Positions 1-61,186 of a DNA stretch of 64,000 nt are shown piece after piece. Source of the DNA: Planctomycetota bacterium (GTDB taxonomy: Bacteria; Planctomycetota; B15-G4; JADJEK01). Location: positions 7,354 through 71,353 of the forward strand of contig JBPOIU010000022.1 in assembly GCA_052034255.1 (NCBI GenBank), read 5' to 3'. How positions within the stretch are numbered: the stretch's first letter is position 1; the number at the start of each line of letters is the position of its first letter. The notes beneath the pieces were generated by a model. It was not told where the DNA came from. It did not search any database and saw only the letters and a program-made list of their open reading frames with translations. Position numbers and translations under genes: made by a program.

Positions 1-225
1 CAACAGGCCGCGCCACATGTAGACGCGCGTCACCGGCACGCCGTCGTCGACCGTCTCCTCGCGCCGCACCAGCGCGGCGTCGGCGCGATACGAGGGCTCG
101 AACGTGAACACGCGGACGTCGTGCCCGGCCGTGCCACGCAGCTTCAGCGCCAGGCGTTTCGCGTAGAGCTCGGTACCGGTCGTGTACTGCGGCGGGTATT
201 GGTGCGTGACGAACACGATCCGCAT
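1..225 (-). CDS. Glycosyltransferase family 4, N-terminal fragment; gene continues past the window start
   Basis: Minus-strand translation from the ATG at 225 gives MRIVFVTHQYPPQYTTGTELYAKRLALKLRGTAGHDVRVF, a typical GT4 N-terminus paralogous to the downstream GT4s. Its start overlaps the stop of the next gene (TGATG). Confidence 0.5.
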   Translation of the reverse strand, partial: MRIVFVTHQYPPQYTTGTELYAKRLALKLRGTAGHDVRVFTFEPSYRADAALVRREETVDDGVPVTRVYMWRGLL

Positions 226-2934: not shown

Positions 2935-3087
2935 GCCGGCCTGGGAGTCCGACGGCTGGCACGCGAGGAACGCGCGCGCGGGGATCGCCGCCGAGCGGCA
3001 AAGCGCGATCGCGACATGCGCTGCGTACGATGCGCCCCACAGCGCCCGGTTCCAGAGTTGGTCCAGAGTCCGTCGGTTGGGGACGTC

Positions 3088-4476
3088 ATGCGTGCGTGGT
3101 TACGGCGCGGCCATCACGGTCCCGTCGGCGCTTTGTTTTGGATCGTCGCCACGGTGCTCGGGTGGCGCGGTGTGGAGCCGGTCGCGACGTACTTCTACGT
3201 CGCGGCGTGGTACCCCGCGCTGCTGGTCGTCGATGCCGCGACGGCGCGCAAGCGCGGCTGGTCGATGCTGTCCGACCGTCCGCTCGCGTTGTTCTGCCTG
3301 TGGGCGTGGTCGACACCGTTCTGGCTGTTCTTCGAGGTCGTCAACCTGCGCCTCGAGAACTGGTACTACGTCTTCGCCCCGGCCGACCCACTCGCGGGCC
3401 GCCTGTTCCTGATCGCGTCGTTTTCCACCGTGCTGCCCGCTCTGTTCCTCGTCGCCGATCTGCTCGACGCATACGGCTGGTTCGAGAACACGCGCATTCG
3501 CCCGTTGCCGCTGACCATCGCGACGCGCACATGGTGCTTCGTCGCCGGCGTGGCGATGCTCGTGCTGGTGTTCGCGCTCCCGACGCTCGCGTACCCGCTC
3601 GCGTGGGGCTTCCTCGTGCTCCTGCTGGAGCCGTTCAACGTCCAGCCGCGCTGGAACAGTCTGCTGCGCGACCTCGCGTTCGGGCAGCCCGGCCGACTGT
3701 TGCGCCTCGTCGTGGCGGGCCTCGCGTGCGGCGCGTACTGGGAGATCATGAACGTGCCGGCGCGCGCGCGCTGGATCTACACGATCCCGTTCTTCGACAG
3801 GACGCTCGGCGTCGAGATGCCGCCGCTCGGCTTCCTCGGCTTTGCGCCCTTCGCGCTCGAGGCCTACGCCTTCGTCCGCGCGCTCGAGATCCAAGGTCTG
3901 TCGGTGCCGTGGGAGTCCGGCCCTGGTCGAGCACGCCCGCTCGCACCGTGGTTCCGGCTGTTCGCCGTGCCAGCCGTGGTCACGGCCACGGCGCTGCTCG
4001 GCATTCGAGCGCTCGAGCGCTGGACGGTGGACTCCCGCCAGTCGACCACCGCGGAACTCCCGACCGTGACCGCGCGGGAGGCCCGGATCCTCGACCAGCT
4101 CGGGCTCGCCGACCCGCGCGACCTAGCCGTGATCGACGCCGCGTCGACGCCGTTGAACGCGACCGACCTCGCGAAAATCCTGTTCGTCGAGGACGAACGT
4201 GCCACGGACCTGATCACGCTGGCGCGGCTCGCCGAGTTCCGAGGCCTCGGAGCGCAGCGCGCGGCGCTGCTGTTTCGCGTCGGCATCCGGTCCGTGGCCG
4301 ACCTCGCCGCCGCCGATCCGGACCTGCTGCTCGATCGTTTGGCCGCGCTTGGTCCACCGTCGCGAACGGTTCGCCCCCAGCGGGTTCTGGGCTGGATTCG
4401 GGCTGCGCGCAAGGCCATACGTGATCGGGTGATCGGTCCGGATACGAGCTTCCGTTCCGAGGCCGATGCTCCCTAG
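3088..4476 (+). CDS. Polytopic integral membrane protein with C-terminal tandem helix-hairpin-helix (DUF4332-like) domain
   Basis: Start is at MRAWLRRGHHGPVGALFWIV. There are about 8 hydrophobic segments, including WYYVF and LFLVADLLD. The C-terminus reads LDQLGLADPRDLAVIDAASTPLNATDLAKILFV...FRGLGAQRAALLFRVGIRSVADLAAADP, which is HhH-like. It is divergent from the GT4 gene at 2934. Confidence 0.6.
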   Translation: MRAWLRRGHHGPVGALFWIVATVLGWRGVEPVATYFYVAAWYPALLVVDAATARKRGWSMLSDRPLALFCLWAWSTPFWLFFEVVNLRLENWYYVFAPADPLAGRLFLIASFSTVLPALFLVADLLDAYGWFENTRIRPLPLTIATRTWCFVAGVAMLVLVFALPTLAYPLAWGFLVLLLEPFNVQPRWNSLLRDLAFGQPGRLLRLVVAGLACGAYWEIMNVPARARWIYTIPFFDRTLGVEMPPLGFLGFAPFALEAYAFVRALEIQGLSVPWESGPGRARPLAPWFRLFAVPAVVTATALLGIRALERWTVDSRQSTTAELPTVTAREARILDQLGLADPRDLAVIDAASTPLNATDLAKILFVEDERATDLITLARLAEFRGLGAQRAALLFRVGIRSVADLAAADPDLLLDRLAALGPPSRTVRPQRVLGWIRAARKAIRDRVIGPDTSFRSEADAP

Positions 4477-4595
4477 AATCCCCGCCTCGTCCGTCGAGCC
4501 ATCCGGTTCGTCCACGATGCGGGGCGCTCACGCGCCGCGCTCCCGGACGTCGGTGTCGTGTGAGTCCTCTCCTCTCGATCGCAAGGACCCATCGC

Positions 4596-6104
4596 ATGAA
4601 GAGCTTCGTGAATCGTTTCCGGATCGCCGTGCCCTGCTTGTTCCTCGCCGTCGCGGCCGGTTCGGCCGACGCAGCGACGATCAACGTTCCGGCCAACTTC
4701 CCGACGATCCAAGGAGCGATCGACGCTGCGCTCCCGGGTGACACGATCGTCGTCGCCAAGGGTGTGTACGAAGAAGTCCTCAACATCCCGAACACGCTCG
4801 TCGGTCTGACGCTGCGCGGCAAGAAGGGTGCGATCTTGGACGCTCGGCCGGCCGGCGTGGACTCCGGCGCCGGCATCGTCGTCGTCGCGAACTCCGTGAC
4901 GGTGCGTGACCTCGTCATCCGCCATGCGGCGGACATCGTCAGCAACGACGGCGACGGGATCCGGGTGACCGGAACCGGCTTCATCGGCCGCAACCTGACG
5001 ATTCAACACTGCGAAGGCAGCGGCGTCGCGCTGGGCGGTACGGGCGCATTGCTCGACAACGTGACCATTTCCGGCACGTCCGATGGCGTCAACTTCGGCG
5101 CCGCGACCACGACGCTGCGTCGCGTGCGGACGAACGGAACGTCGTCGAACGGCATCGATGGAACGGGCGCCACGGCCGTGATCGACCGGTGCACCGTCCG
5201 CGACAGCGATGGATTCGCCATCGTGATCACGGGTGCCACGGCGACGCTGACGAAGAACACGGTGACCAACTGTGGTTCCACGGCGATCGTGATCACTGGC
5301 GCCGGCGCGACTCTGACGCAGAACACCGTGACCCTCTGCAACGACGGCATCTCCGTCGCGGGCAACAACGCCGCGGTGACCAAGAACAAGCTGCGCTCGG
5401 TGGACGGCACCGGCATCGCCCTCACCGGGGATACCGCCAACATCCAGTCCAACGTGATCGACGACGCCGACACGTGCGTCGCGATCCTCGGCAACGGCAA
5501 CTCGGCGATCGGAAACACCGGTCGACGCTCGGCGGAAGGCATCACGGCCGTCGGCACGACGAACAACGTCGGCGACAACGTGCTGCGCGACCAGTCCAAC
5601 GTCGGCATCTCCATCACGGGTGCGAGTTCCGGAACGTCGGTGATCGCCAACGACATCCGTAACTGCGTCGCCGAGGGCATCGTCTGCACGTCGGACACCG
5701 TGACGATCGCCGGCAACGCTCTGCGCGACTGCGGCACGTTCGATCTCGCGGCGCTAAGCGTCACGGCGAACTCGAACGACGTCACCGGCAACAACGTCCG
5801 CAACGCGCGCTCCGACGGCATTCGCGTGAGCGGCAACTCGAACTCGGTCGCGGCGAACGTCTGCCAATCGAACCTCGAGGACGGCATCGACATCGAAGGC
5901 GGCACGAACAACACGCTCAGCAACAACAACTGCTCGTCGAACTCCGCCGAGGGCATCGAGAACAACGGCGGCAACACGACGATCCAGAACTGCACGGCGC
6001 AGAAGAACCGCACCGACATCGCCAATGACGGCACGCTCGGCGCGTTCAACTTCAACGTGTTCACGACGGGTGGTCAGGCCACCGCGCCCGAAGTCGACGG
6101 CTGA
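4596..6104 (+). CDS. Secreted right-handed parallel beta-helix repeat protein (pectate-lyase / NosD-like fold)
   Basis: MKSFVNRFRIAVPCLFLAVAAGSADA is a signal peptide. About 20 periodic xxGxxIxGxxxTLTxNTVTNC coils follow, and the protein is rich in N, T and G. Its composition is unlike the high-GC artefact ORFs. Confidence 0.7.
   Translation: MKSFVNRFRIAVPCLFLAVAAGSADAATINVPANFPTIQGAIDAALPGDTIVVAKGVYEEVLNIPNTLVGLTLRGKKGAILDARPAGVDSGAGIVVVANSVTVRDLVIRHAADIVSNDGDGIRVTGTGFIGRNLTIQHCEGSGVALGGTGALLDNVTISGTSDGVNFGAATTTLRRVRTNGTSSNGIDGTGATAVIDRCTVRDSDGFAIVITGATATLTKNTVTNCGSTAIVITGAGATLTQNTVTLCNDGISVAGNNAAVTKNKLRSVDGTGIALTGDTANIQSNVIDDADTCVAILGNGNSAIGNTGRRSAEGITAVGTTNNVGDNVLRDQSNVGISITGASSGTSVIANDIRNCVAEGIVCTSDTVTIAGNALRDCGTFDLAALSVTANSNDVTGNNVRNARSDGIRVSGNSNSVAANVCQSNLEDGIDIEGGTNNTLSNNNCSSNSAEGIENNGGNTTIQNCTAQKNRTDIANDGTLGAFNFNVFTTGGQATAPEVDG
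5221..5352 (+). repeat. Intragenic tandem duplication of ~66 bp (two beta-helix coils)
   Basis: The segment atcgtgatcacgggtgccacggcgacgctgacgaagaacacggtgaccaactg is followed by atcgtgatcactggcgccggcgcgactctgacgcagaacaccgtgaccctctg at about 80% identity. Both encode IVITGA(T/G)ATLT(K/Q)NTVT. Confidence 0.4.
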
Positions 6105-6226: not shown

Positions 6227-7639
6227 TCACTTCGGCGGAGCGTCCACGCGCGCCCGCAGGGCGTCCTCGAGCTCGTGGATGCGCCGCCGCTGTTCGGCCA
6301 CGATGTCCTCCCACTTCTCGATGCGCACCAACTCCTGGAACGCCGTCTCGCGCCGATTCCATTCGTCGCGCAGACGTTCCGCGTCGTCGCGCACGGGTGG
6401 CGGAGGCGTCGGTCGCCGCAGCGCGTCGGCATAGATGGCTTCGAGCCGGGACGCGTGCTCCACGAACGTCGCGAGCCGCGGCCCTTCCGCCGTCCGCATC
6501 GCATCGAGCCGCCCCGGCTCGTCGACGAGCAGCGCGAGCTTCCGGGCGAGATCGTCCGCGTCGTTCGGCACGAACGTCAGCACGCGTCCGGTCGCCCGTT
6601 CCGCGAGAGCGCCCGCCGCCGCGGCGAGGATCGGAACTCCGAACAGCGTGGCCTCGTCGAGGATGAACGAGTACGACTCGCGCGCGAGTGTCGGGATCAC
6701 CGCCACGTCCATCGTCGCGCCTTCGAGGTCGGCGACGCGAAAGCGGCCGTGGAAGTGGACGTCGGAACCCTCGGCCAGGAGCTCCAGGCGCTCCTTGTAC
6801 TCCGGCGACGACGCTTCGCCATGCAGGTGGACGGCCAAGCGATCCCGCCGCGCGCACCGCCGCACGGCTTCGAGCAGCACGTGCGCGCCCTTCAGTGGAT
6901 GCAGATGGCTCCAGTACGCGACATGGAGTTTGCCGTCCGCCCCGCGGGCCGGCGCGGTCCGAGGCGTTTCTTCGAGCGAACCGTGCGGCAACGTGACGAG
7001 CTGCGCCGCGGTGTAGCCGAGCATGCGTCCGAGGAACGTCCCGTGCGACGTCGAAGGGGTGATCACGCACGCGGCGAGTTCGAGCTCGCGCAGCATGTCC
7101 GCGCGATAGCGGCGAATCGCCGCCGTGATCTCCGGGTCGCGTTGGAAGCGCCAGCGCGGCACGCACGTCAGGCACGCGTCCACGCTCATCGGCCGTTCGC
7201 ACGGCTCGTCGCCGTTCGTTCCCTTGAGCCGGAACACGCGCGGACAACTCGGATACAGATCGTGCGCGGTCACGACCGCACGGACTCCGAGGCGCGTCGC
7301 GATGGCGACCAGGTTCGTCGACAGCCGGATCCAATGATGCACATGCACGAGATCGGGGCGCAACGAGCCGATGTGGCGCTCGAACACCTGCGACACGCCG
7401 GGGTGGTACCCCTTGTCCCAGCGGTCGAAGTACAGGTCGTTGCGGTGCACGCGCGTGACCGGCACGTCGTCGACGACTCCGCGCTCGACTTCGAGGTCCT
7501 TGCGCCACTCGAGCGAGCCGGCGAACACGTGCGGCTCGTGGCCTGCGCGCCGTTGCTCACGCACGAGGCGCGCCACGTAGAGCTCGGTGCCGCCGATGAC
7601 TTCGGGCGGATAGCCGTGGACGACGTGCAAGATCTTCAC
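6227..7639 (-). CDS. Glycosyltransferase family 4 (Cys4-insert paralog) with C-terminal coiled-coil tail
   Basis: MKILHVVHGYPPEVIGGTELYVARLV, DLVHVHHW, VVTAHDLYPSCPRV..C..CLTC. The C-terminal ~70 aa are charged and helical (ERLRDEWNRRETAFQELVRIEKWEDIVAEQRRRIHELEDALRAR). Confidence 0.8.
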   Translation of the reverse strand: MKILHVVHGYPPEVIGGTELYVARLVREQRRAGHEPHVFAGSLEWRKDLEVERGVVDDVPVTRVHRNDLYFDRWDKGYHPGVSQVFERHIGSLRPDLVHVHHWIRLSTNLVAIATRLGVRAVVTAHDLYPSCPRVFRLKGTNGDEPCERPMSVDACLTCVPRWRFQRDPEITAAIRRYRADMLRELELAACVITPSTSHGTFLGRMLGYTAAQLVTLPHGSLEETPRTAPARGADGKLHVAYWSHLHPLKGAHVLLEAVRRCARRDRLAVHLHGEASSPEYKERLELLAEGSDVHFHGRFRVADLEGATMDVAVIPTLARESYSFILDEATLFGVPILAAAAGALAERATGRVLTFVPNDADDLARKLALLVDEPGRLDAMRTAEGPRLATFVEHASRLEAIYADALRRPTPPPPVRDDAERLRDEWNRRETAFQELVRIEKWEDIVAEQRRRIHELEDALRARVDAPPK

Positions 7640-9057
7640 GAACCGACCTCGCTGACGGGGTGCCGACCGACGAGCGCCATCAGTTCCTCCTCGACGCGAT
7701 CGACGTGCGCATCAAGCGTCAGCGGCTGCGGCGCCGCGGCGCGCATGCGCTCGATCACGGCACGGTCCTGGACGAAGACCGCGAACGCGCGGGCCAGCGC
7801 TTTGGCGTCTCCCGGCGCGAACAGCAGGCCGTCGACGTCGTGGCGCACGGCCTCGGCCATGCCACCGAGGTTCGACGCGACGACCGGCACGCCGGCGGCG
7901 CGGGCTTCTTGGATCACGATCGGAAAGTTCTCGAACCAGATCGACGGCACGACCAGCACGTCGATCTGCGCGAACGCCTTCGCCAGATCGCGGCGCGGCA
8001 CCGGGCCCTTCAGATCGACGTCGAGACCCTGCGCCAGTTGTTCGAGGCGCGCGACGTAGTCCGGGTAGTAATCGCGGCGTCCGAACACGAGCAGCCGGCC
8101 GTGGCCCTTCATGAAGCGCATCGCTTCGATCGCCACGTGGACGCCCTTGTGCGGCGCCAACGTGCCGATGAACCCGAACACGACGTGGTCGTGCTCGCGG
8201 CGCTTGCGCTCGGCGTGCGCGGGCATCTCGATCCCGAGCGGCAATACGTGGATCTTGCGCTTCGGCAAGCCGAACGCGGCCATGCCCTCGCGGACGGTGT
8301 TCGACGGCGCGAGGAATCGATCGACGTGGCGCGCGAGCGCGTGGAACGCCTTGTCGCGACGCTTGAACAACGGCGCGAACGAGTCCACGCGCGCACGACG
8401 CGCGCGATCCGCCTTCTCGTCCTGCGTCGCGCTCGGCGCGTCGCCGCCGCCGCGCACGAGCGGCAATCCGCGCAAGACGTCGACGACCGGCGCGAGATCG
8501 AAGCCCGCGACGTTCTTCGTCCAGCGGATCGCCGAGATCATGCGTTGCTGCAGCTTCGTTTGCGCGAACTTGAAGTCGGCCATGCAGTTCGCGCACTTCT
8601 TCGGCTCGGGGCCGGTGCAGACGCGCTCACCGTGTTCGAGCAATTGGCCGAAGCGCGCGCACGCGAGGAAGAAGTCGTGCAGGGTCATCAACACCGGGAT
8701 GCCGCGTTCCTTCGCGATGGCGGGCAAACCCATCGACAACAGCATCACGTGCTGCACGTGGACGACGTCCGGCCGGACGTCGTCGAGCACCACGCGGAAC
8801 TGACGCTCGACCTCGGGGTTCGCGAAGGTCTCGTCGAACGACGCGTAGAGCAGGTTGTTCGTCAACACGTGACACGGGATGCCGTGCCACTCGCGTCGCT
8901 CGAGCGTGTAGTTGTGCCGCGACAACACCTTCTCGGTGAAGAACAGGTGCACGTCGTGGCCACGTTGTTTCAACGCCCGCGCGATGCTGTCGGTGTAGAC
9001 CTCGGTGCCGGCCGAGTGTCGTGGCAAGAAGAAGTGCAGGACGAGCAGCACTCTCAT
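7636..9057 (-). CDS. Glycosyltransferase family 4 (Cys4-insert paralog)
   Basis: Start is at MRVLLVLHFFLPRHSAGTEVYTDSIARAL, which is aa 160 of the listed ORF; the upstream extension is a compositional artefact. DVVHVQHV, MTLHDFFLACARFG..C..CANC. ATGA overlap with the upstream GT2 stop. Confidence 0.8.
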   Translation of the reverse strand: MRVLLVLHFFLPRHSAGTEVYTDSIARALKQRGHDVHLFFTEKVLSRHNYTLERREWHGIPCHVLTNNLLYASFDETFANPEVERQFRVVLDDVRPDVVHVQHVMLLSMGLPAIAKERGIPVLMTLHDFFLACARFGQLLEHGERVCTGPEPKKCANCMADFKFAQTKLQQRMISAIRWTKNVAGFDLAPVVDVLRGLPLVRGGGDAPSATQDEKADRARRARVDSFAPLFKRRDKAFHALARHVDRFLAPSNTVREGMAAFGLPKRKIHVLPLGIEMPAHAERKRREHDHVVFGFIGTLAPHKGVHVAIEAMRFMKGHGRLLVFGRRDYYPDYVARLEQLAQGLDVDLKGPVPRRDLAKAFAQIDVLVVPSIWFENFPIVIQEARAAGVPVVASNLGGMAEAVRHDVDGLLFAPGDAKALARAFAVFVQDRAVIERMRAAAPQPLTLDAHVDRVEEELMALVGRHPVSEVGS

Positions 9058-10067
9058 GCGCGCCGTCCTGGCTTCAAGAAGCGCGCGACGCGCTCGGGCG
9101 TGACTGCCCGGCCGAGGAAGCCGTCCTTCAGCCCGATCCACTTCGCGACCGCCGCCCCCGCGCGGCCGCGGCTCGCGGCGACGACGAACGCGAGCGGCCA
9201 GGCGAGGACGTCGAACACGAACAGCCCGATCCAACCGCGGACGCTGCCGTGGCGACGCAGGAAGTGCACCGAGTTCACGGCGTTCATGTACTTGCGCGCC
9301 GCCGTGTAGCCGCCGCCCGTCGACGCGGACGCGTCGTGGACCGCGACCGCGCTCGCGACGTAGCGATTCTCGAAGCCCGCGCGCGCGGCACGCTGCCCGA
9401 ACTCGACGTCCTCCATGTAGCAAAAGAAGGATTCGTCGAAGACGCCCGCGCGCTCGAACACCGTGCGCCGCACGAGCAGCGCGGCGCCGGGTACGTAATC
9501 GACCGTCGAGTCCTCGCGGAAGCGGCCGTTCCACACCCGGCCGTGACCGCGCAGACGCGAGACGTTCTGTCGGTGGGTGACTTCACCACCCGCTGCCCAG
9601 ATCCGCCGCTCGGCGCCGGGCAACAGCACCATCGGCCCCACCACGCCGACGTGGTCGTCCGCGTCCAGCGCGGCCTCGAGGCGCGCGACGCAATCGGGGT
9701 CGACCTCGATGTCGTTGTTCAGCAACAGCACGCGGTCGGCGCCGCGCTCCAACGCCAGTCGGATCCCGAGGTTGATTCCGCCGCCGTAGCCGAGATTCGA
9801 ATGCGCGACGTGAAGTTGGACGTGCGGTAGCCGCGCCCGGATGCGCGCGACCGAATCGTCGTGCGAGGCGTTGTCGACGACCACGATCGCCGGCGGGCGC
9901 GGACGTGAACGCTCGACCGCGGCCACGCAACGCAGCGTGTGCTCTGCTCCGTTCCAATTGAGCACGACCGCGACGGTGCCGCCGCTGACCCGGGGTGCCG
10001 ACATCGGCCGCGAGTCTACACCCCGACCGCGGCGAAGAACGCGACGCCCTCGACGCCGATTCGACAC
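9054..10067 (-). CDS. Glycosyltransferase family 2 (GT-A)
   Basis: VAVVLNWNGAEHTLRCVAAV...IVVVDNASHDDS...LLNNDIEVDPDC...YMEDVEFGQRA gives the DxD and ED signature. A C-terminal amphipathic or TM tail is present. An alternative start is MSAPRVSGG at 10004. Confidence 0.75.
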   Translation of the reverse strand: MSNRRRGRRVLRRGRGVDSRPMSAPRVSGGTVAVVLNWNGAEHTLRCVAAVERSRPRPPAIVVVDNASHDDSVARIRARLPHVQLHVAHSNLGYGGGINLGIRLALERGADRVLLLNNDIEVDPDCVARLEAALDADDHVGVVGPMVLLPGAERRIWAAGGEVTHRQNVSRLRGHGRVWNGRFREDSTVDYVPGAALLVRRTVFERAGVFDESFFCYMEDVEFGQRAARAGFENRYVASAVAVHDASASTGGGYTAARKYMNAVNSVHFLRRHGSVRGWIGLFVFDVLAWPLAFVVAASRGRAGAAVAKWIGLKDGFLGRAVTPERVARFLKPGRRA

Positions 10068-10160: not shown

Positions 10161-11228
10161 TCACGGGACGAGCCACGAAACGCAGGCCCACCAGGCGCGC
10201 AGCAGCCCGGACAGCACGCGTTCGCCGAAACTGCCGGTCTTGCCGCGGTCGATCCGCGGCGAAAACGTCAGGTCGGGCGCCCCGAGCAGGCGGCGGTCGC
10301 CCTGCTTGCGGAACTTGGCGATGGCCTTGCGCTGGGCGCGGATCTCCGGGAACTGCGCGATCAGTGACGATTTCGCCTTCACGTATTCGCCCAGCGCGCC
10401 TTCGCGCAGCGCGAACACGACATACGCGAGCCCGAGCAACAGCAGGCCCGGCAAGGCGAGCACCAGCGTGCGCTTTCGATAGTTCTTCAGCACCACGCGC
10501 CAACGATTGCGCGAATGCAAGAACAGGCGTCGCGCTGGGTAGCTCGGACCGCCGCGGAACGAGATGCCGGCGGTGCCGGCCCGATGGTCGACCAACGCGT
10601 CCGGCAGCGCACGAATGCGCCAGCCCGCGAGCCGCAGTCGGTACGAAAGATCGTGATCCTCGAACAGGATGAAGAACGCCGGGTCGTAACCGCCCACGGC
10701 ACGCAGCTTCACCCGATCGACGAGCGCCGCCAGCGAGATGAACGCGTCGACGTCGGCGGCTTCGTGCGTACACCGATCGAGCGGCACGAAGAAATGGCGC
10801 AGCGCCATGACGCCCGCGTAGTGGAACGAGCCGCCGTCGTAATGCACGACGTCCGGTCGCGCCGCATCCAGCGCACGCGGTGCGGCCACCGCGACGTCCT
10901 GCTCGCGCTCGAACTCCAGCAGCAAGCGCTCGACACAGCCGTTTCGCACCAGCACGTCCTGATCGAGCTGGAACACGAGGTCGTGGCGCGCCTCGCTCAA
11001 CCCGACGTTGCGCGCCGGGCACGGACCATCGTTGGTCGGCATCCGGATCACGCGGACGCGGGGGAACTCGGCCGCCACCATCTCGGAAGTGCCGTCGGTC
11101 GACGCGTTGTCGACGACCAGGATCTCGGCGAACGGGAACTGCCCGGGCTGGTACAGCGACCGCAGACAGTCGCGCAGGTCGTCGCGACCGTTGTACGACA
11201 CGATGGAGACGGACACCGGGACGACCAT
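10161..11228 (-). CDS. Glycosyltransferase family 2 (GT-A) with C-terminal membrane anchor
   Basis: VSVSIVSYNGRDDLRDCLRSL...ILVVDNASTDGTSEM...FQLDQDVLV...FEDHDLSYRLRLAGW, followed by C-terminal hydrophobic segments LVLALPGLLLLGLAYVVFAL. Confidence 0.75.
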   Translation of the reverse strand: MVVPVSVSIVSYNGRDDLRDCLRSLYQPGQFPFAEILVVDNASTDGTSEMVAAEFPRVRVIRMPTNDGPCPARNVGLSEARHDLVFQLDQDVLVRNGCVERLLLEFEREQDVAVAAPRALDAARPDVVHYDGGSFHYAGVMALRHFFVPLDRCTHEAADVDAFISLAALVDRVKLRAVGGYDPAFFILFEDHDLSYRLRLAGWRIRALPDALVDHRAGTAGISFRGGPSYPARRLFLHSRNRWRVVLKNYRKRTLVLALPGLLLLGLAYVVFALREGALGEYVKAKSSLIAQFPEIRAQRKAIAKFRKQGDRRLLGAPDLTFSPRIDRGKTGSFGERVLSGLLRAWWACVSWLVP

Positions 11229-11231
11229 GCG

Positions 11232-14200
11232 TCACTTCACCGGCGGTTCGAAATCGGGAGCGCGGCAGACGACGCGGTGACGCAGGCAATACGGCAGCAT
11301 CGCGAGCGCCGCGAACGTCGCTTTGGTCGCGATCCACAAGCCACCCGGCGTCTGCTTCACGGCCTTGTCGATGCCGATCGTGCCGCTGGCGTCGTTGGCG
11401 TTGCCGCGCTTCAGTCCGAGGCCTTTCAGCCCGAGCACCCACGCCGCGCGGACGATCTGACCGATCGAGCAGTGCTTGAACGCGTACAGCCAGAAATTGC
11501 GCACGTGGAAATAGAGCGAGCGCTTGCCGCCCTTCATGCCGAACGGCGTCTTGTGGAACAGCTCGGCATCGGGGCACATCACGATGCGGTGACCGAGGCG
11601 CAGCACGCGACTCGCGAGATCGCGCTCGTTGCCGTAGATGAAGAAGCGCTCGTCGTAGTAGTCGGCGGCCTTCAGAACGTCGCTGCGCGCCAACGTCCCG
11701 CAACCGCGGAACGTCGCCATGTAGCGCTCGCGCTTCTCGGCCAGCAGGAACTCGGGCGGCATGCCGGGCTCGACGACCAACGACGACACCATCGCGGTCG
11801 AGTTCGGCTCCGCCAACATGCGGTCGTACAGGCGGCCGAGCCATTCGGGCGGCGCGACCACGTCGTCGTCCATGATCGCCGTGAACGGCTGCGTCGCGGC
11901 CTTCATGCCGAGATTGAACGTCTCGCAGGCTCCGGCCTTGTCGTGCGGCATCTCGATCAGCGTCACCTGCGGGAACTCGCGCCGGATCATCGCGGCGGTG
12001 CCGTCCTTCGACGCGTTGTCGACGACCACGATCTGCGCCGGTCGCGCCGTCTGCCGCGTCAACGCCAGCAAGTTCTCGCGGACGTCGGCGCACTTGTTCC
12101 ACGTCGAGATCACGCAACTGACCGGGACTTCGCGCGAGCTCGGGGCGGCCGGCGCGGCGGTTGGCGCGACGACATCGGTTGCCGAGGGGCGAACGGCGGT
12201 CGCACCAGCGACGAACGCTCGCGCGCGCGCGGCGAGTTCGGCCCACGCGAACAGGCGATCCGCGTCGATCTCGAGATAGGCCTCGGCCGCTTCGACGCCG
12301 CGCACGTCGACGTTGACCGTGCGCGCGCGATTCGCGGTCAGCGTCTTGTCGGTGACGTCGAGGTACGCGCGTTGGCTCGCGAACGCGTTCAGCGCGGCGC
12401 GCTTCTTCGGGAGCTGCGCCGTGACGTCGAGCAAGTACGACGCCGGCTGCGGCTCGTTCACTTCGTACAGCACGACGCGCGGGCGCATGCCGCTCTGCAA
12501 GAGCGCGTGCGCCGCGAGCCAGTACGTCGCGCGATGATCCGGATGGTGTTCCCACGGCGACGGCACGTACAGCACGTCGGGCCGCAGCGTTTCGAGCAGG
12601 CCGGTGAACCCGGACAGGAATGCCCCGTCGGGGCGCAACGCGCCATCGGGGAAGTCGAGCGCGTGGAACTCGGTGAGGCCGAGCTCGCGTCCCGCGGCCC
12701 GCGCTTCTTCCTTGCGCACCTCGGCGATGCGGCCGCGCTCCTTGCCGTCACGATCCCCGCCGGCGCCATCGGTGACATGGACGACGGCCACGCGATCGCC
12801 GCGTTGCGCGTGAAGACCCAGGGCTCCGCCCGCGCCGATGATCTCGTCATCGGGATGCGGCGCCAGCACGACCACCCGACCGCCGGGCACGCGCGCGAAC
12901 TCGGCGAGCGGCACGAACGTGAAGCGCGGATCGAACGGCGGGATTTCTTGCGGGGGCAGCGGGCCTGCGGACATCGGGGCGGACATCGGGGCGGTCGTCG
13001 ACGGAGGTGGCGAAGCGTAAAGGGCTTCCAACGTCACGGCATGGTCCGAAATCGCGAACCGACGCGCCGCGGTCCGCGCGCGGGCGGCCGCCAGCTCGGC
13101 CGGCCGCTGCAGCAGGCGCATGAGCAGGCGCGCGAGCGCGTCCACGTCCCCCACCGCGACCACGAAACCGGCGTCGCCGGCTCGCTCGGGCGCAGCGCCG
13201 CGGTCGGCCACGACCACCGGGATGCCGAGCGCGAGCGCCTCGTCGACGACCAACGAATAGGTCTCCGCAGCCGCGCTGAAGAACACCGCGACGTCGGTCT
13301 CCGCGGCGAGGCGCTGCAGTCGATCGGAGTCGAACGCTCCTTCGCGGACGACCTCGAGCGGGGCCAGGCGCTCGAGTCGGCCGAGCTGCTCGCGTTCGAA
13401 GACGGCATCCGTCGCGCGACCGAGCAACGTCAGTCGCAGCCGCGCCCGAACTTCCGCAGGCAGTCGCTCGAGCGCGTCGATCACCCGATCGACGCCCTTC
13501 ACGGGAGCGAGGTTGCCCCACCACGCGATCCGGAGCCGCCCCGCGGGATCGGCACGCCACGCTTCGGGATGGAGCGTGCGCGTCAGCCCGAGCGGCAACA
13601 CGTCGATCGGAACGACTTGCGGCAGGATGCCGGAATCGCGCAGCGTGCGCGCGGCCGCGGCCGACGGCGCCAACACCTCGTCGGCGGCGCGCAACTCGGC
13701 GTCGAAGAACGCGCGGCGCGCGAGCAGCTCCGCGCGCGGTCGCGCCTCGTCGCCACCGAATTCCGGCGCGCAACACGTCACGCAGCGCTCGAGCGGCACC
13801 GGCGTGTCGTCGCCGCAGAAGCCGCCGTCGTTCCGCACCATGAAGAAGCGCGGACACGCGGCGAGGAAATCATGCAGCGAGACGATGGTCCGCGCGCCGA
13901 ACGCTTTGGCGTCGGCGACCAGCGGACAGAACAGGTTCATGTAGTGATGGACGTGGACCACGTCGGGCGCGAATGCTCGCAGGCAATCCGCCCACCGCGT
14001 TCGGACCTCCGGCACCTCGAGGTGCGCCGAGAAGCGCGGTCCGCGATGCAAGACGCGCCACACGCGCACGCCGTGATGGGTCTCTTCGAGGACGCCGTCG
14101 CCGTCGCGCTCGCTGCCCGAGAACACCGCGACCTCGTGGCCGCGCGCCGCCTGTTCGACGACCAGCGCGGCGAGGTACGCCTCGGTGCCGCCGACGAACT

Positions 14201-14237
14201 CCGGCGGGAAGTTGTGGACCGCGTGCAGGATCCTCAT
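11232..14237 (-). CDS. Tri-domain fusion: GT4 glycosyltransferase - LmbE/PIG-L-type N-acetylglucosaminyl deacetylase - GT2 glycosyltransferase (1001 aa)
   Basis: One uninterrupted frame. aa 1-408 are GT4 (MRILHAVHNFPPEFVGGTEAYLAAL, DVVHVHHYMNLFC, SLHDFLAACPRFF..C..CVTCC). A Pro-rich linker with the tandem duplicate PMSAPMSA follows. aa ~440-690 are LmbE (VVVLAPHPDDEIIGAGGA, HPDHRATY). aa ~715-1001 are GT2 (VSCVISTWNK, IVVVDNASKDGT, DDDVV). The first 261 codons of the listed 1262-aa ORF are artefact and overlap the real LmbE gene in another frame. Confidence 0.7.
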   Translation of the reverse strand: MRILHAVHNFPPEFVGGTEAYLAALVVEQAARGHEVAVFSGSERDGDGVLEETHHGVRVWRVLHRGPRFSAHLEVPEVRTRWADCLRAFAPDVVHVHHYMNLFCPLVADAKAFGARTIVSLHDFLAACPRFFMVRNDGGFCGDDTPVPLERCVTCCAPEFGGDEARPRAELLARRAFFDAELRAADEVLAPSAAAARTLRDSGILPQVVPIDVLPLGLTRTLHPEAWRADPAGRLRIAWWGNLAPVKGVDRVIDALERLPAEVRARLRLTLLGRATDAVFEREQLGRLERLAPLEVVREGAFDSDRLQRLAAETDVAVFFSAAAETYSLVVDEALALGIPVVVADRGAAPERAGDAGFVVAVGDVDALARLLMRLLQRPAELAAARARTAARRFAISDHAVTLEALYASPPPSTTAPMSAPMSAGPLPPQEIPPFDPRFTFVPLAEFARVPGGRVVVLAPHPDDEIIGAGGALGLHAQRGDRVAVVHVTDGAGGDRDGKERGRIAEVRKEEARAAGRELGLTEFHALDFPDGALRPDGAFLSGFTGLLETLRPDVLYVPSPWEHHPDHRATYWLAAHALLQSGMRPRVVLYEVNEPQPASYLLDVTAQLPKKRAALNAFASQRAYLDVTDKTLTANRARTVNVDVRGVEAAEAYLEIDADRLFAWAELAARARAFVAGATAVRPSATDVVAPTAAPAAPSSREVPVSCVISTWNKCADVRENLLALTRQTARPAQIVVVDNASKDGTAAMIRREFPQVTLIEMPHDKAGACETFNLGMKAATQPFTAIMDDDVVAPPEWLGRLYDRMLAEPNSTAMVSSLVVEPGMPPEFLLAEKRERYMATFRGCGTLARSDVLKAADYYDERFFIYGNERDLASRVLRLGHRIVMCPDAELFHKTPFGMKGGKRSLYFHVRNFWLYAFKHCSIGQIVRAAWVLGLKGLGLKRGNANDASGTIGIDKAVKQTPGGLWIATKATFAALAMLPYCLRHRVVCRAPDFEPPVK

Positions 14238-14947
14238 GGCGTTCCGGCGCGTGCGTCCGGCTCGAGCGCGACGAATGCCTCGCCGTACGTCGCTCCCTTG
14301 TCGAGGAACACCGCGCGATACGCGTTCAGACCGGACACGAAGCGGCGGATGTCGGTGTGCTCGAGCTGACTCGGATAGCAGTCGAGCGCCGCCATCTTCG
14401 TGGCGTAGACGCGCGAGACGTCGACGATCCACGTCGCGCGCGACGCGCTCCAGACTTCGTAGCCGAAGGCGCGCGGCGGACGATCGAGTTGCGCGAGCAC
14501 GCGCTGCGTCAGCACTGCGGTCGTGTAGTGGTCCGAGTGCTGGTCGCCGAGATGCGGTGCGTAGACCACGTCGGGCGCGAACCGCACGAGCGCGTCCTTC
14601 AACCGCGGCAGGATCGCGCCGAGGTCGTCCTCGTGGACGCGGTAGTTGTCGGGGAAGCCCCAGAACTCCTGCGCGGCGATCCCGAGCACCTTGGCCGCCG
14701 CGCGCGCTTCGGCCTGCCGGCGCGCCGCGTACGCCGGCTTGTCCTCGCGCCCGGTCGGATCGCCCGACGTCCCGGCCGTCAGGAACAGCACGTGGATTTC
14801 GTCCCCGAGCTCCGCATGCAACCGGATCGTGCCTCCGGGTCCGATCGTCTCGTCGTCGGGGTGTGGAGCGAGCACGAGCACGCGACCCCGCGCAGGCGGC
14901 GCGCTCAAGCGGATCGGCGGAGCGGGAGGTTCGAGGTAGCGCGTCAT
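14234..14947 (-). CDS. PIG-L/LmbE family deacetylase (standalone paralog)
   Basis: VLVLAPHPDDETIGPGGTIRLHAELGDEIHVLFLTAG and the DQHSDHYTTA motif form the Zn-binding His/Asp pattern of the MshB/BshB/PIG-L fold. Its stop overlaps the ATG of the fusion gene (ATGA). Confidence 0.8.
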   Translation of the reverse strand: MTRYLEPPAPPIRLSAPPARGRVLVLAPHPDDETIGPGGTIRLHAELGDEIHVLFLTAGTSGDPTGREDKPAYAARRQAEARAAAKVLGIAAQEFWGFPDNYRVHEDDLGAILPRLKDALVRFAPDVVYAPHLGDQHSDHYTTAVLTQRVLAQLDRPPRAFGYEVWSASRATWIVDVSRVYATKMAALDCYPSQLEHTDIRRFVSGLNAYRAVFLDKGATYGEAFVALEPDARAGTP

Positions 14948-15110: not shown

Positions 15111-15141
15111 CGTGAATCAATCGGATGGATTCACGTTTTCT
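15111..15141. other. Stem-loop abutting the GNAT gene stop
   Basis: cgtgaatc-aatcggatg-gattcacg is followed by ttttct on the plus strand. On the coding (minus) strand it is preceded by an A-tract and is not followed by a U-tract. Confidence 0.3.
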
Positions 15142-16154
15142 CAGTAGATGTCCGAGTCCCCCATCGTGAAGAACCAATGATCCTGCGCCCAGCGTTCGTC
15201 GAACTCCGGGCCGAACACACGGATGCAGAGGTTGAACGTCGACGGATCCGGTGCGAAACCGAGAGTGCGAAGCGTCTGCGCGAGGCTCGACCAGCCGGGA
15301 GCCCAGGTCTCCATGCGCGACTTCCCGGCATCGCGCGCGAGCATGGCCGCGCGTTGCGCAAGGCCGGCGACGGCCTCGCGATCCTCGCCCTCGACGATCC
15401 AGTCGACGAGCGGCGCGAGCGGTTTGTCGAACCACTCGGTGCGCAGCACCAGCACGCCGCGCAAGCGCCCCGCCGCGCGCGCTTCGAGCACGCGATAGCG
15501 GAACGACGGACAGCGGGAGTAGCGCCACTCGAGGTACGCATGATCGCGGCATAGCACCAGCGGCAGCTTCGCCATCGTCGCGTCGAACAACGCGTCGACG
15601 TCCGCTGGAATCGAGGCGACCTCGCGGACCTGGACCGCATCCCCACCCATCGGTCCGAGGTAGTCGATCCAGTCCTGCGCGAAGTCGCGGACCAGCGCGA
15701 CGACCGGCGTGTGGACCGGTCGGTAGTCGAGGATGCGCGTGCCGATGCGGAACGCCTGCGGATTCGGGAAGCCGTAGACGATGCGATCGCGATCCGGTCG
15801 CCCGTAGGCGTCGAAGAACGCGCGCGCGAGCGACAGGAACAGGCCCTCCTTCTTCAGCACGCGACGCCACGCCGGTGCGACGCAGGTGTCGACCGCTTGC
15901 GACCCGAGCATCGGCGCGCCGCGATCGAGCCATAGCGCCGGGATGGCCGTGTAGTTGCCGACGATGGCTCCGCTCGCGTCCTCGGCGACGAACGTGTGGT
16001 GCCCGTGCGGGTTGTGCGCGAACTGCCACTGCCAGTGCGCGAGCGTGCGCGGCGTGAACGTCGGATTGCCCTCGGCGAACACTGCGTTGAACAGCGCGAG
16101 GATCCCGTGTTCGTCGCCGGACCGATAGGGCCGGATCGTGAAGTCGGAGCTCAT
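15141..16154 (-). CDS. GNAT-superfamily acyltransferase, ~337 aa (two-lobe, MshD/Eis/FemAB-like size)
   Basis: Start is at MSSDFTIRPYRSGDEHGILALFNAVFAEGNPTF, aa 101 of the listed ORF. AWRRVLKKEGLF resembles the (R/Q)xxGxG/A motif. The C-terminus is NLCIRVFGPEFDERWAQDHWFFTMGDSDIY. It is a paralog of the gene at 17211. ATGA overlap with the kinase stop. Confidence 0.6.
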   Translation of the reverse strand: MSSDFTIRPYRSGDEHGILALFNAVFAEGNPTFTPRTLAHWQWQFAHNPHGHHTFVAEDASGAIVGNYTAIPALWLDRGAPMLGSQAVDTCVAPAWRRVLKKEGLFLSLARAFFDAYGRPDRDRIVYGFPNPQAFRIGTRILDYRPVHTPVVALVRDFAQDWIDYLGPMGGDAVQVREVASIPADVDALFDATMAKLPLVLCRDHAYLEWRYSRCPSFRYRVLEARAAGRLRGVLVLRTEWFDKPLAPLVDWIVEGEDREAVAGLAQRAAMLARDAGKSRMETWAPGWSSLAQTLRTLGFAPDPSTFNLCIRVFGPEFDERWAQDHWFFTMGDSDIY

Positions 16155-16993
16155 GCCAACGTCTTTCGGCCAGGGCCATCGCCCGACTTGCGCGCAGGCC
16201 TTTGCCACAGCGCGCGCCATTTCGCGCGCGAGCAGTACGTCGCCGCGCGCGCACCGCTCTCGCGCAACGCGAGCGCGCGGTCGGCGAATCCGGTCGCGTC
16301 GGGCGCGTAGGCGCGCAGGAACGCGCGCGCCGCTTCGTCGTCGGGCACCAACGCCGCGCTCTCGAATGCCGACAACACATCGGCGAGCGCCGCTTCGCGC
16401 GCCCGCACCGAATGATCGACCAGCACCCCCGACGGATGATCGATCCACAGCCATCGCGTGGCTTCGTCGCGCGAACGCACGCGCAGCAGGTTGCGCGGGC
16501 TCGCCGCCAGATGGAGGTAGCCGCCGTCATGCATGCGGCTCAGCGTGCGCGCGAACTGCAGCCGCCCTTCGTCGCGTCGTGCTTCCGGCGTGCCGCTCCA
16601 CAGCAGGATCTGCGCCAACGACTTCACGTCGCCCAGGTCCTCGAACGCGACCAGTTGGTCGACGACGAACCCGCGCGCGCGACGCTCGCCGTAGGCGATC
16701 GCGGGAACCACCGGCAGGCCGCGTTCGAACGCCGTCCGCGAGTTGTCGTACTCGCGGTGCGCGCGCGACCGGCTCCAGGGCGTCAATGCGTTGCGAGCGA
16801 ACGGCGGGCGATAGAGCTTCACGAACACGCGGGGCGCGGCGGGAGTCGGTTCGACCCACGCATGGAACGTGTTGCGCTCGCGCCGCCATTGCTTGACGGC
16901 GGGATGCTCGGGCACGAGCTCGCGCAACACGGCGGCGAGGCCGGGCCAGCGATCCGGTTCGGCGACGACCAGGTCCGGGAAGAGGGGCGGCAT
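16151..16993 (-). CDS. Kdo/WaaP-family (lipopolysaccharide/sugar) kinase-like protein
   Basis: Start is at MPPLFPDLVVAEPD. VFVKLYRPPFARNALTPW...FERGLPVVPAIAYGE...MHDGGYLHLAASPRNLLRV matches the protein-kinase-like fold of the KdkA/InaA/WaaP family. Confidence 0.5.
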   Translation of the reverse strand: MPPLFPDLVVAEPDRWPGLAAVLRELVPEHPAVKQWRRERNTFHAWVEPTPAAPRVFVKLYRPPFARNALTPWSRSRAHREYDNSRTAFERGLPVVPAIAYGERRARGFVVDQLVAFEDLGDVKSLAQILLWSGTPEARRDEGRLQFARTLSRMHDGGYLHLAASPRNLLRVRSRDEATRWLWIDHPSGVLVDHSVRAREAALADVLSAFESAALVPDDEAARAFLRAYAPDATGFADRALALRESGARAATYCSRAKWRALWQRPARKSGDGPGRKTLA

Positions 16994-17210
16994 GACGCGA
17001 GAGCTTCGAACTTCCACCGGCCCGCATCAACTGCCGGCTGAAAAAGACCGGCCCGACCGGCACGCGCTCCAGTGGCCCGCGGGCAACCGGGGGACGCGTC
17101 CCGCCTCGACCGGCCTCCGCGGTCCGTCGGCGGCCGAGCCAAGTTCAAGGCGCGCCGGAGTTCGTGACGATGGGCTTGAACCCACGCCGACGAAGGTCGA
17201 AGCTCCCCGC

Positions 17211-18242
17211 ATGACCGTGCCCTCCGAACAGCTCGTGATCCGTCCGTACCGCGAGGGCGACGCGCCGCGCATCCTCGCGTTGTTCAACGAGGTCTTCGCC
17301 GAAGGCGATCCGAACTTCCACGAGCGCACGCTCGCGGAATGGGAATGGGAGTTCGTCCACAACCCCGCCGGCGAACAGATCGTCGTCGCCGAGGAGCCCG
17401 GCACCGAGCGCATCGTCGCGCAGTACGCGTGCTTGCCGGCCTGGGCGAACTTGAACGGCCAGCGCGTGTGGATCGGGCAGGGCATCGACTCGGTGGTCCA
17501 CAAGGACTACCGCCGCGGGCTGAAGCGCGAGGGCGCGTTCCTGCGCACCGCGAAGTACTACTTCGACCACATCGGCATCGCCGACAAGAACGCGTGGGGT
17601 TACGGCTTCCCGAACAGCAAGGCGTTCGGGATCGGCGTGAAGCTGCTGAAGTACCTGCCGATCGCCGCGCCGGTGCCAACGCTGTTCCGCAACCTGTTCC
17701 AGTGCGCGAACGACGACGCCGTCGGGCGGCACCGCTCCGCGGACCTGCGCGTCGTCGACGTGCAGCGCTTCGACGCGTCGGCGGACGCGTTCTGGGCGCG
17801 ACTCGAACCGCTCTATCCGATGGCGATCCGGCGCGACGCCGCATACCTCAATTGGCGTTACCTCGACAATCCACTGGCGCGCTACGTCGCGTTGCGGCTG
17901 GTCGACGCCAATGGTGCGCAGCGCGGCGTCTGCGTGCTGCGGCCGGATTGGACCGGCCCGCCGATCCTCGCCGTCGCCGAATGGCTGGTCGAGCCGAACG
18001 ACGTGGTCGCGACGTCGTCGCTGCTGCATGCGGTGACGCAGTGGGCACGCGCGCATGGCCAACAACGCATCGAGGTCTGGGTGCCGCCGACGCACCCGCA
18101 GTTCACCGCGATCCAGGCCGAGGGCTTCGCGGTCGAGTCGTCGCCCTTCAACCTCTGCATCAAGATCTACCGCCCGGAACTGACCGAGGACTGGGTCAGG
18201 GCGCACTGGTACTGGACGATCGGCGACTCCGACGTGTTCTGA
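17211..18242 (+). CDS. GNAT-superfamily acyltransferase, ~343 aa (paralog of 15141..16154)
   Basis: MTVPSEQLVIRPYREGDAPRILALFNEVFAEGDPNFHERTLAEWEWEF...DYRRGLKREGAF...NLCIKIYRPELTEDWVRAHWYWTIGDSDVF is collinear with the minus-strand GNAT at roughly 50% identity. It is divergent from the kinase gene. Confidence 0.6.
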   Translation: MTVPSEQLVIRPYREGDAPRILALFNEVFAEGDPNFHERTLAEWEWEFVHNPAGEQIVVAEEPGTERIVAQYACLPAWANLNGQRVWIGQGIDSVVHKDYRRGLKREGAFLRTAKYYFDHIGIADKNAWGYGFPNSKAFGIGVKLLKYLPIAAPVPTLFRNLFQCANDDAVGRHRSADLRVVDVQRFDASADAFWARLEPLYPMAIRRDAAYLNWRYLDNPLARYVALRLVDANGAQRGVCVLRPDWTGPPILAVAEWLVEPNDVVATSSLLHAVTQWARAHGQQRIEVWVPPTHPQFTAIQAEGFAVESSPFNLCIKIYRPELTEDWVRAHWYWTIGDSDVF

Positions 18243-32527: not shown

Positions 32528-32583
32528 AGGCGCCGAGGCGCGCTCGTCGGTGCGTACGACCGACAGTTCCCACTGGGCCGCGA

Positions 32584-34700: not shown

Positions 34701-34722
34701 CGCAAAGCCGCGCAGATCGGGA

Positions 34723-36853: not shown

Positions 36854-36979
36854 CCGCGAGGATCCCCCGCGAGCTTCGGCACTCTTTGCCGCCGGACTGA
36901 AACGAGCGTGCTGGACAGCTCGGCGAACGGCGAACCGATCGGTAGCCGATCGTGCGTCCGCTCCTTATGTTCCGCCCCC

Positions 36980-60126: not shown

Positions 60127-60217
60127 GCAGCGGAGTCCGTGGCGGCGACCCCGATCGATCCGCCGCAAAGGGCAGGTCCCTTGGGCGTACCCCGCCCCCA
60201 AACGAATGAGACTTGCG

Positions 60218-61006: not shown

Positions 61007-61186
61007 CGCGTCCACCCTCCACTGCGGCAATCCGCTTGCTCAAGGAATGCAGTCGATCGCGTCGAAATCGATCGCGGCGGCATGCCGCATGCATGCCCGA
61101 TGCGACGCCCATCGCGCCGCTCCTATAAGGGTTCCGGCACGCGCGAGCGAATGCCGTTCGTCCTATTCCTGGATCTGGAGTTCCCG

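Follow-up and report, generated by a model that had tools for sequence, protein, structure and literature searches.

Can several consecutive steps of glycan synthesis be combined in a single bacterial polypeptide, and how could such a protein have arisen? The question is raised by a gene located in a 64,000-nucleotide stretch of DNA from a Planctomycetota bacterium (contig JBPOIU010000022.1 of assembly GCA_052034255.1, positions 7,354 to 71,353 of the forward strand). This whole stretch is referred to below as the window, and coordinates are counted from its first nucleotide. The gene (11232..14237, minus strand) encodes a fusion of (i) a glycosyltransferase (GT) of family GT4, (ii) a zinc deacetylase of the LmbE/PIG-L type (family CE14), designated LmbE-b, and (iii) a glycosyltransferase of family GT2. 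On balance, we lean towards the view that the fusion protein is a trifunctional cytoplasmic enzyme of a Wzm/Wzt-dependent surface-glycan pathway of Phycisphaerae-like Planctomycetota, in which the GT4, deacetylase and GT2 domains would act in this order as a relay.

Three catalytic domains in one reading frame

Translation of the open reading frame (ORF) gives a protein of 1001 amino acids (aa) with no internal stops (the coordinates include the stop codon). The domains were delimited by Pfam searches, by alignment with full-length homologs (including inspection of invariant columns) and with a hidden Markov model (HMM) for each domain. The GT4 domain (GT-B, retaining; aa 1-409, 13011..14237, minus strand, as are all parts of the gene) contains the Glyco_transf_4 and Glycos_transf_1 regions (aa 15-388), which score 64.8 bits for PF13439 and 58.8 bits for PF00534 (cutoffs 28.5 and 26.4, respectively). 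The LmbE-b domain (aa 433-665, 12243..12941) matches the PIG-L family PF02585 at aa 457-578 (E-value 2.2e-30). Its score of 106.3 bits, versus a gathering cutoff of 28.2, bears out the sequence-only reading of this DNA, which had assigned the central region to LmbE/PIG-L and had named a failure to match this family as the observation that would speak against it. The third domain (GT2; GT-A, inverting), together with its helical C-terminal extension, occupies aa 701-1001 (11235..12137) and matches Glycos_transf_2 (PF00535) at aa 707-822 (7e-21; 75.3 bits, cutoff 23.3).

The catalytic motifs of all three domains are invariant in the alignment of 11 sequences. These are (i) EX7E, the hallmark of the GT4 family, at E325-E333 (ETYSLVVDE), together with K247, (ii) APHPDDE (aa 459-465) and HHPDH (aa 564-568) of LmbE-b, and (iii) VVDNAS (aa 738-743, including D740) and DDD (aa 790-792) of the GT2 domain. 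By the sequence features that define membership, the domains belong to families GT4, CE14 and GT2, respectively.

No transmembrane (TM) helix and no signal peptide were predicted in the protein, which is predicted to be soluble and cytoplasmic. Its domains are separated by linker 1 (approximately aa 410-432, 12942..13010), which is rich in Pro, Ser and Ala, hypervariable and predicted to be disordered, and by linker 2 (approximately aa 666-700, 12138..12242), which is variable and comprises a predicted helix followed by a disordered stretch. The AlphaFold2 (AF2) model of the whole fusion, computed from the 11-sequence alignment, has a predicted local distance difference test score (pLDDT) of 67 and a predicted template modelling score (pTM) of 0.44, with pLDDT below 50 in the GT2 core, and was used for the assessment of linker disorder alone. 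The pLDDT falls below 50 at aa 413-442 and 680-701, i.e. both interdomain linkers are predicted to be disordered.

The length of the ORF is in itself weak evidence, because the DNA of the window (69% GC) also holds a 1284-aa ORF on the opposite strand (10515..14369, plus strand), which spans the whole fusion gene. This antisense frame fails the filter based on codon position and on GC content at third codon positions (GC3), and it looks like a typical shadow ORF of high-GC DNA and not a gene. The fusion frame is considered a real gene because of its domain matches, all above the Pfam gathering scores, and because of ten full-length homologs with the same architecture, so that the initial description of a tri-domain protein in one uninterrupted frame was correct. 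The homologs (991-1046 aa, 56-99% identity, same Pfam set), found in a search of 5.8 billion proteins, stem from independent assemblies, and those with a named source are metagenome-assembled genomes (MAGs) of Planctomycetota. An artefact, such as a frameshift, a lost stop or an assembly chimera joining separate genes, might be suspected from the split versions found in relatives (see below) and from the tolerance of high-GC DNA for long spurious ORFs. We rejected this explanation, whose probability is negligible, since the same uninterrupted architecture recurs over the whole of this identity range in independent assemblies (Logan, NCBI, ENA) of different samples; moreover, the in-frame linkers vary in length and sequence between the assemblies.

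We also searched 1.84 billion cluster representatives (50% identity) exhaustively with a profile, and the 150 best matches (down to approximately 255 bits) were listed. Standalone and multi-GT4 proteins of a Cys-rich GT4 subtype (described below) dominate these matches. Among the matches listed, exactly one 50%-identity cluster spans all three domains, and the remaining LmbE-containing proteins are two-domain forms or differently ordered fusions. Co-linear GT4-LmbE-GT2 proteins, a search for which had been proposed in the sequence-only reading, are represented by the ten full-length homologs and, among the matches listed, by this single cluster. The accompanying remark that the architecture is unlike that of characterised enzymes also holds, as none with it turned up. 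The homologs are already present in GenBank under the automatic name "PIG-L family deacetylase". When the LmbE-b domain was used alone, 118 of the 120 best homologs were standalone proteins of approximately 240 aa, a count that describes the wider LmbE subfamily only, its word-index search not having returned the fusion proteins.

The most conserved portion of the alignment is the GT2 half with its helical C-terminal tail, and both linkers differ freely in length and sequence among the homologs. Linker 1 of the window contains a perfect 12-nt tandem repeat (12967..12994; 2.3 copies, 100% identical, Tandem Repeats Finder), which encodes PMSAPMSA (aa 417-424). The duplication had been noticed in the sequence and taken as a sign of a recent or evolving fusion junction; the repeat is there, and the interpretation did not survive comparison with relatives. 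Only the window and its 99% identical twin carry the duplication, a single PMSA being present in relatives of 83-84% identity, and it is a recent slippage event in an unconstrained linker, uninformative on the age of the fusion. The junction itself is old, and not recent, because the fusion is common to relatives down to 56% identity.

The N-terminal half of the GT4 domain contains an invariant cluster of cysteines (C128/C141/C152/C155/C156; 13770..13856, minus strand, aa 128-156), which is possibly a zinc site. The insert bearing this cluster is poorly modelled by AF2. A similar C...C...CxxC pattern occurs in a neighbouring GT4 (7636..9036), and the same Cys-rich GT4 subtype heads many GT4-GT4-GT4 proteins of 1100-1400 aa among the matches listed in the exhaustive profile search.

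A second, standalone PIG-L deacetylase, LmbE-a (237 aa, 14234..14947, minus strand), was identified by Pfam (101.1 bits; motifs PHPDDE and HSDH) and synteny. It is transcribed ahead of the fusion gene, and its stop codon TGA shares nucleotides with the ATG of the fusion (ATGA). The gene and its overlap had been described accurately from the sequence; of the two positions given to it, "upstream" is right and "followed by" is not. LmbE-a and LmbE-b are paralogs (38% identical), each of which occupies a constant syntenic position in approximately 25 genomes. Because of this retention at fixed positions, two distinct deacetylation steps seem more likely than the redundancy that had been offered as the other possibility.

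From adjacent genes to a single protein

Relatives of the locus were sought in one genome per GTDB species, which yielded approximately 25 loci, nearly all from Planctomycetota or Phycisphaerae-type MAGs. One HMM per domain was then mapped onto the stop-to-stop ORFs of 30 loci (L and P numbers below denote loci and database proteins, respectively). The order LmbE-a, GT4, LmbE-b, GT2 is constant across the loci, and it is the number of genes that varies. Four states were recognised: (i) four separate genes (L019, L022, L023, L025 and L027-L030), (ii) a GT4 gene beside an LmbE-GT2 fusion (L004, L011, L017, L018 and L021), (iii) a GT4-LmbE fusion beside a GT2 gene (L020 and, independently, the database protein P0109), and (iv) the full GT4-LmbE-GT2 fusion (the window, L001-L003, L005-L010 and L015). 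The split in L004 is genuine, with a clean ATGA overlap between the GT4 and LmbE-GT2 genes, and in L011 a HipA-family toxin gene (HipA_C and Couple_hipA; 6561..7859 of that locus, minus strand) is inserted between the two, splitting the operon. The apparent split in L012 was not counted, as a run of N in the GT4-LmbE linker (approximately 11980..12010) makes a false frame change and the locus is unscorable.

When the concatenated domains were placed in a neighbour-joining tree, all full fusions fell into a single crown clade, whose sister clade is made up of loci in the four-gene state; the tree is midpoint-rooted, so the polarity of fusion versus fission is provisional. Because the split-gene relatives keep the same order, we infer that the fusion arose stepwise from three adjacent operon genes (GT4, LmbE-b and GT2), which are separate in the more distant relatives.

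A complete operon of the four-gene type was also found in L030 (JBLIMM010000068.1), a contig labelled Pseudohongiellaceae (Gammaproteobacteria). It is syntenic with the Planctomycetota loci and 38-53% identical to them, which indicates either mis-binning or horizontal transfer.

Outside this family, P0206 of a Methylobacter sp. MAG (1404 aa) has the architecture PIG-L-GT2-GT1-like-GT4, and P0227 (1084 aa) consists of LmbE-GT2-LmbE-GT2. It therefore seems that LmbE-GT2 recurs as a fused module outside Planctomycetota as well. Both proteins carry the same domain families on one chain and the same LmbE-GT2 unit as the fusion described here; they differ from it in domain order and lineage, and their LmbE domains score approximately 150 bits with the family HMM, compared with 400+ within the family. 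They are likewise uncharacterised.

The joining of LmbE-b to GT4 in some lineages and to GT2 in others is what would be expected of the middle enzyme in a relay. Such fusions may serve as "Rosetta stones": repeated, independent joining of LmbE-b to GT4 or GT2 suggests that the three enzymes act on the same intermediate. The loci might also be read as two parallel modules, each composed of a deacetylase and a transferase (LmbE-a with GT4, LmbE-b with GT2). LmbE-b would then deacetylate a beta-linked N-acetylhexosamine (HexNAc) added by GT2, or unmask the acceptor of GT2 independently of GT4, and the three-way fusion would reflect adjacency and co-localisation only, with no passage of the product from GT4 through LmbE-b to GT2. 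The gene order does correspond to two [LmbE, GT] repeats, the overlap of the LmbE-a stop with the GT4 start (ATGA) suggests translational coupling, and LmbE-GT2 outnumbers every other fused pair in the family by far (L004, L011, L017, L018, L021, P0013 and P0110) and recurs in the unrelated P0227 (twice) and P0206 (there followed, further along the chain, by GT4). However, LmbE-b is also found fused to GT4 with a separate GT2 (L020, P0109 and P0140), and LmbE-a is fused to GT4 in none of the approximately 25 loci, despite the overlap. We regard two such modules as rather unlikely and retain the relay from GT4 through LmbE-b to GT2 as the preferred interpretation.

The Wzm/Wzt operon and a candidate reaction scheme

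The usual composition of the operon is Wzm, Wzt, GT2, (GT2), one or two GNAT-like genes, LmbE-a, GT4, LmbE-b, GT2, GT2 (355 aa), GT2 (approximately 315-337 aa), GT4 and GT4, with a total of 7-8 GTs, and the neighbours are as conserved as the fusion itself. In the window, the fusion gene is directly followed by a GT2 gene conserved in all loci (355 aa, 10161..11228) and then by a second conserved GT2 gene (337 aa, 9054..10067), the products of both having one C-terminal TM helix. Two conserved GT4 genes come next (466 aa, 7636..9036; 470 aa, 6227..7639), the latter encoding the closest paralog of the GT4 domain of the fusion; all four are on the minus strand. In L003, L008, L012, L019-L024 and L027-L030, the cluster is immediately preceded, on its own strand, by genes encoding Wzm (ABC-2 permease), Wzt (ABC ATPase with Wzt_C) and a GT2. 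In the window, this trio (33531..36964, minus strand; Wzm and Wzt at 34723..36964; GT2 of 407 aa) is displaced from the cluster by an unrelated segment of approximately 16 kb. The match to Wzt_C (PF14524) in the window is borderline (30.6 bits, cutoff 30.4), and a precomputed match is also present in L003. Linkage of the GT genes with a Wzm/Wzt exporter containing a carbohydrate-binding module (CBM) marks the operon as a putative ABC-transporter-dependent (O-polysaccharide-type) glycan pathway. In this type of assembly, synthesis of the entire chain takes place on a lipid carrier facing the cytoplasm, and the capped chain is then recognised by the CBM and exported (PMC11231755).

Upstream of LmbE-a lies a gene for a tandem-GNAT N-acyltransferase-like protein, GNATa (337 aa, 15141..16154, minus strand), identified by Pfam, homologs and structure prediction. 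GNATa has no sequence relative in the PDB; its AF2 model (pLDDT 94.7) is a tandem GNAT, for which Foldseek returned a region of a fungal glucosamine N-acetyltransferase (top match), Eis-type enzymes and N-myristoyltransferases (TM-score approximately 0.6). Its paralog GNATb, recognised through homologs (343 aa, 17211..18242, plus strand; 40% identical), is divergently transcribed, and the two GNAT paralogs of the window accompany its two LmbE paralogs. The GNATa/GNATb family occurs almost only in Planctomycetota MAGs and has a nearly invariant C-terminal GDSD motif. The window also encodes a Kdo/WaaP-family sugar-kinase-like protein (288 aa, 16151..17017, minus strand), present only here and in L005 and L006 among the loci examined.

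In the relay that we favour, the enzyme would act on a lipid-linked glycan, on the cytoplasmic side of the membrane: (i) the retaining GT4 would add an alpha-linked HexNAc, most likely N-acetylglucosamine (GlcNAc) from UDP-GlcNAc, (ii) the CE14 domain would strip the N-acetyl group to leave a free amine, and (iii) the inverting GT2 would attach the next, beta-linked sugar, the three fused active sites being held together by the flexible linkers. LmbE-a would perform a separate, second de-N-acetylation, one or two tandem-GNAT proteins would probably re-acylate the freed amines, and Wzm/Wzt would export the finished chain. We infer the donor, the acceptor and the order of reactions from family membership and from the order of genes and domains; the sugar identities and the role of the GNAT proteins are proposed with the same reserve.

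The logic of the relay finds support in the nearest solved relatives, which agree with a GT4-then-LmbE order: MshA, BshA and PimB' (as well as WaaG) for the GT4 domain, and diacetylchitobiose deacetylases (Dac), TT1542 and BshB for LmbE-b. In pairs of the MshA/MshB, BshA/BshB, PIG-A/PIG-L and BtrM/BtrD type, a retaining GT4 transfers GlcNAc, and an LmbE-family zinc hydrolase then removes the acetyl group, which opens the amine or the sugar to further elaboration; the pairs serve the synthesis of mycothiol, bacillithiol, the glycosylphosphatidylinositol (GPI) anchor and 2-deoxystreptamine aminoglycosides, respectively. The fusion shares with them both enzyme families and the two-step logic. They differ in being separate proteins, with small-molecule or phosphatidylinositol acceptors and with no fused GT2 for the next step, and, unlike them, the fusion is encoded in a polysaccharide exporter operon. 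The closest solved relatives of LmbE-b, the CE14 enzyme Dac (PDB 8bgn, 3we7 and 3wl4) and TT1542/BC1534 (E-values 6e-17 to 6e-11), align with it in the AHPDD and HxxH metal/catalytic motifs. They are standalone proteins, catabolic or uncharacterised, acting on free chito-oligosaccharides or GlcNAc, and not biosynthetic modules fused to GTs.

Since such pathways canonically pair a GT4 with a subsequent LmbE deacetylase, the product might instead be a small molecule or an anchor, i.e. a bacillithiol- or mycothiol-like thiol, a GPI-like lipid anchor with glucosamine (GlcN), or an aminoglycoside-like metabolite. Both LmbE domains have BshB1 as their best NCBIfam match, the GT4 domain matches BshA and MshA weakly, and the tandem GNAT is reminiscent of MshD. 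Nevertheless, this origin is highly improbable: the operon encodes 7-8 GTs and a Wzm/Wzt polysaccharide exporter, and a Pfam scan revealed no BshC or MshC ligase among the genes of the window. Membership of the bacillithiol and mycothiol families was rejected on the NCBIfam scores, all far below the curated cutoffs of the equivalog models (BshB1, 82.2 versus 182.5 bits; BshA, 48.1 versus 273.7; MshA, 26 versus 462.5), as was the assignment of LmbE-a to MshB (31.7 bits, cutoff 224).

Returning to the surface-glycan relay, WbdA (Escherichia coli O9a and Klebsiella pneumoniae O3), WbbB (K. pneumoniae O12) and ORF6 (O7) likewise contain several GT modules per chain, are cytoplasmic (soluble or peripheral) and are encoded beside wzm/wzt, with a CBM on Wzt. 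There is no described example among them with a CE14/LmbE module, whereas the fusion has one between its GTs. The word "deacetylase" is absent from the paper on multi-module O-polysaccharide (OPS) glycosyltransferases (PMC11231755). A parallel is provided by the bifunctional ribofuranosyltransferases of OPS and capsular polysaccharide synthesis, which combine a transferase dependent on phosphoribosyl pyrophosphate with a phosphatase that unmasks the added sugar "to facilitate chain extension" (PMC11231755). They show the same logic of adding a masked sugar, unmasking it and extending the chain, within one polypeptide of an ABC-transporter-dependent pathway; they differ in chemistry (phosphoribosyl transfer and dephosphorylation) and have unrelated folds.

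It is doubtful, in our opinion, that the fusion is a self-contained polymerase, whose GT4 and GT2 domains would alternate on a disaccharide repeat (one GT module for each linkage, as in WbdA or WbbB), with the embedded deacetylase acting on each new repeat. The resulting polysaccharide would be rich in GlcN, or re-acylated at a later stage. Polymerase-terminator systems with multi-module GT polymerases typically have such a Wzm/Wzt(CBM) context, the best solved relative of the GT2 domain is the bifunctional chondroitin polymerase K4CP (a weak match, 2.5e-7), and the kinase in the cluster of the window, L005 and L006 could cap the chain. However, 4-5 other GTs of the operon are equally eligible, the kinase is not family-wide, and no coiled-coil protein that might act as a ruler or chain terminator was identified here, which is also a difference from the WbdA/WbbB-type systems. 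Dedicated terminators of Wzm/Wzt pathways are kinases, methyltransferases or Kdo transferases, often with a coiled coil. Polymerising and single-addition GTs cannot be told apart here by sequence, and the fit of the proposal is with the type of pathway in general. A "deprotect-to-extend" polymerase, in which the CE14 domain must strip each N-acetyl group before the chain can grow and the GNAT proteins load non-acetyl acyl groups, seems to us no less doubtful. If true, a deacetylase module would here be part of a bacterial glycan polymerase for the first time, and Planctomycetota would have a new class of surface polymers, GlcN-rich or with unusual N-acylation.

Several points weigh against the relay itself. 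The order of genes and domains need not match the order of reactions, and LmbE-b, given the prevalence of LmbE-GT2 fusions noted above, might serve GT2 and not GT4. The cluster showed neither an initiating phosphoglycosyltransferase nor any sugar-nucleotide genes, and the WaaP-like kinase is not a general feature of the family. Moreover, the whole-protein AF2 model, with its poor GT2 core, lends no support to channelling from one active site to the next.

Nothing in the relay overturns established ideas, since all three enzyme families are textbook cases and multidomain GTs are common. Without a description in the searchable literature are (i) the position of a CE14 deacetylase module between two GT modules, (ii) a visible stepwise history of such a fusion and (iii) the connection of the fusion with a Wzm/Wzt glycan operon of Planctomycetota that is conserved and uncharacterised. 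Nothing relevant was found there on LmbE/PIG-L-glycosyltransferase fusions, CE14 multidomain enzymes or the Planctomycetes cluster, a weak negative, as subscription journals lie mostly outside that literature. The relay would turn an anonymous operon with eight GTs into a scheme of reactions that can be tested, and a single polypeptide, from which each step can be removed by a point mutation, readily lends itself to heterologous expression; the protein might also be of use in the chemoenzymatic synthesis of glucosamine-containing glycans. The scheme points to a surface polysaccharide whose amino sugars are de-N-acetylated or re-acylated and which is conserved in many uncultured Phycisphaerae-like Planctomycetota, a phylum whose envelope glycans have been little characterised so far.

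Other features of the window

Four accessory genes conserved in closer relatives lie beyond the GT4 genes of the operon. They encode two GT4 proteins (225..1646 and 1594..2934, minus strand), a DUF4332 protein (3016..4476, plus strand) and a beta-helix protein (4560..6104, plus strand). Neither tRNA genes nor Rfam families at the gathering threshold were detected by tRNA and Rfam scans of the 64-kb window.

A run of genes (28331..32911, minus strand), flanked by the displaced Wzm/Wzt/GT2/GT2 block and by a MacB/FtsX-type ABC transporter (25029..28264), encodes proteins resembling N-formylglutamate amidohydrolase, GCS2 glutamate-cysteine ligase, a RimK-like ATP-grasp enzyme (with an RLAN domain) and a C39 peptidase. 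It looks like a peptide-ligase or modification system. Another stop-to-stop frame of 1001 codons (60119..63124, plus strand), of coincidentally the same length as the fusion, encodes an acyl-CoA dehydrogenase (ACAD9/ACADV type), the domains of which start at approximately codon 414; the first 400 codons of this frame are probably non-coding.

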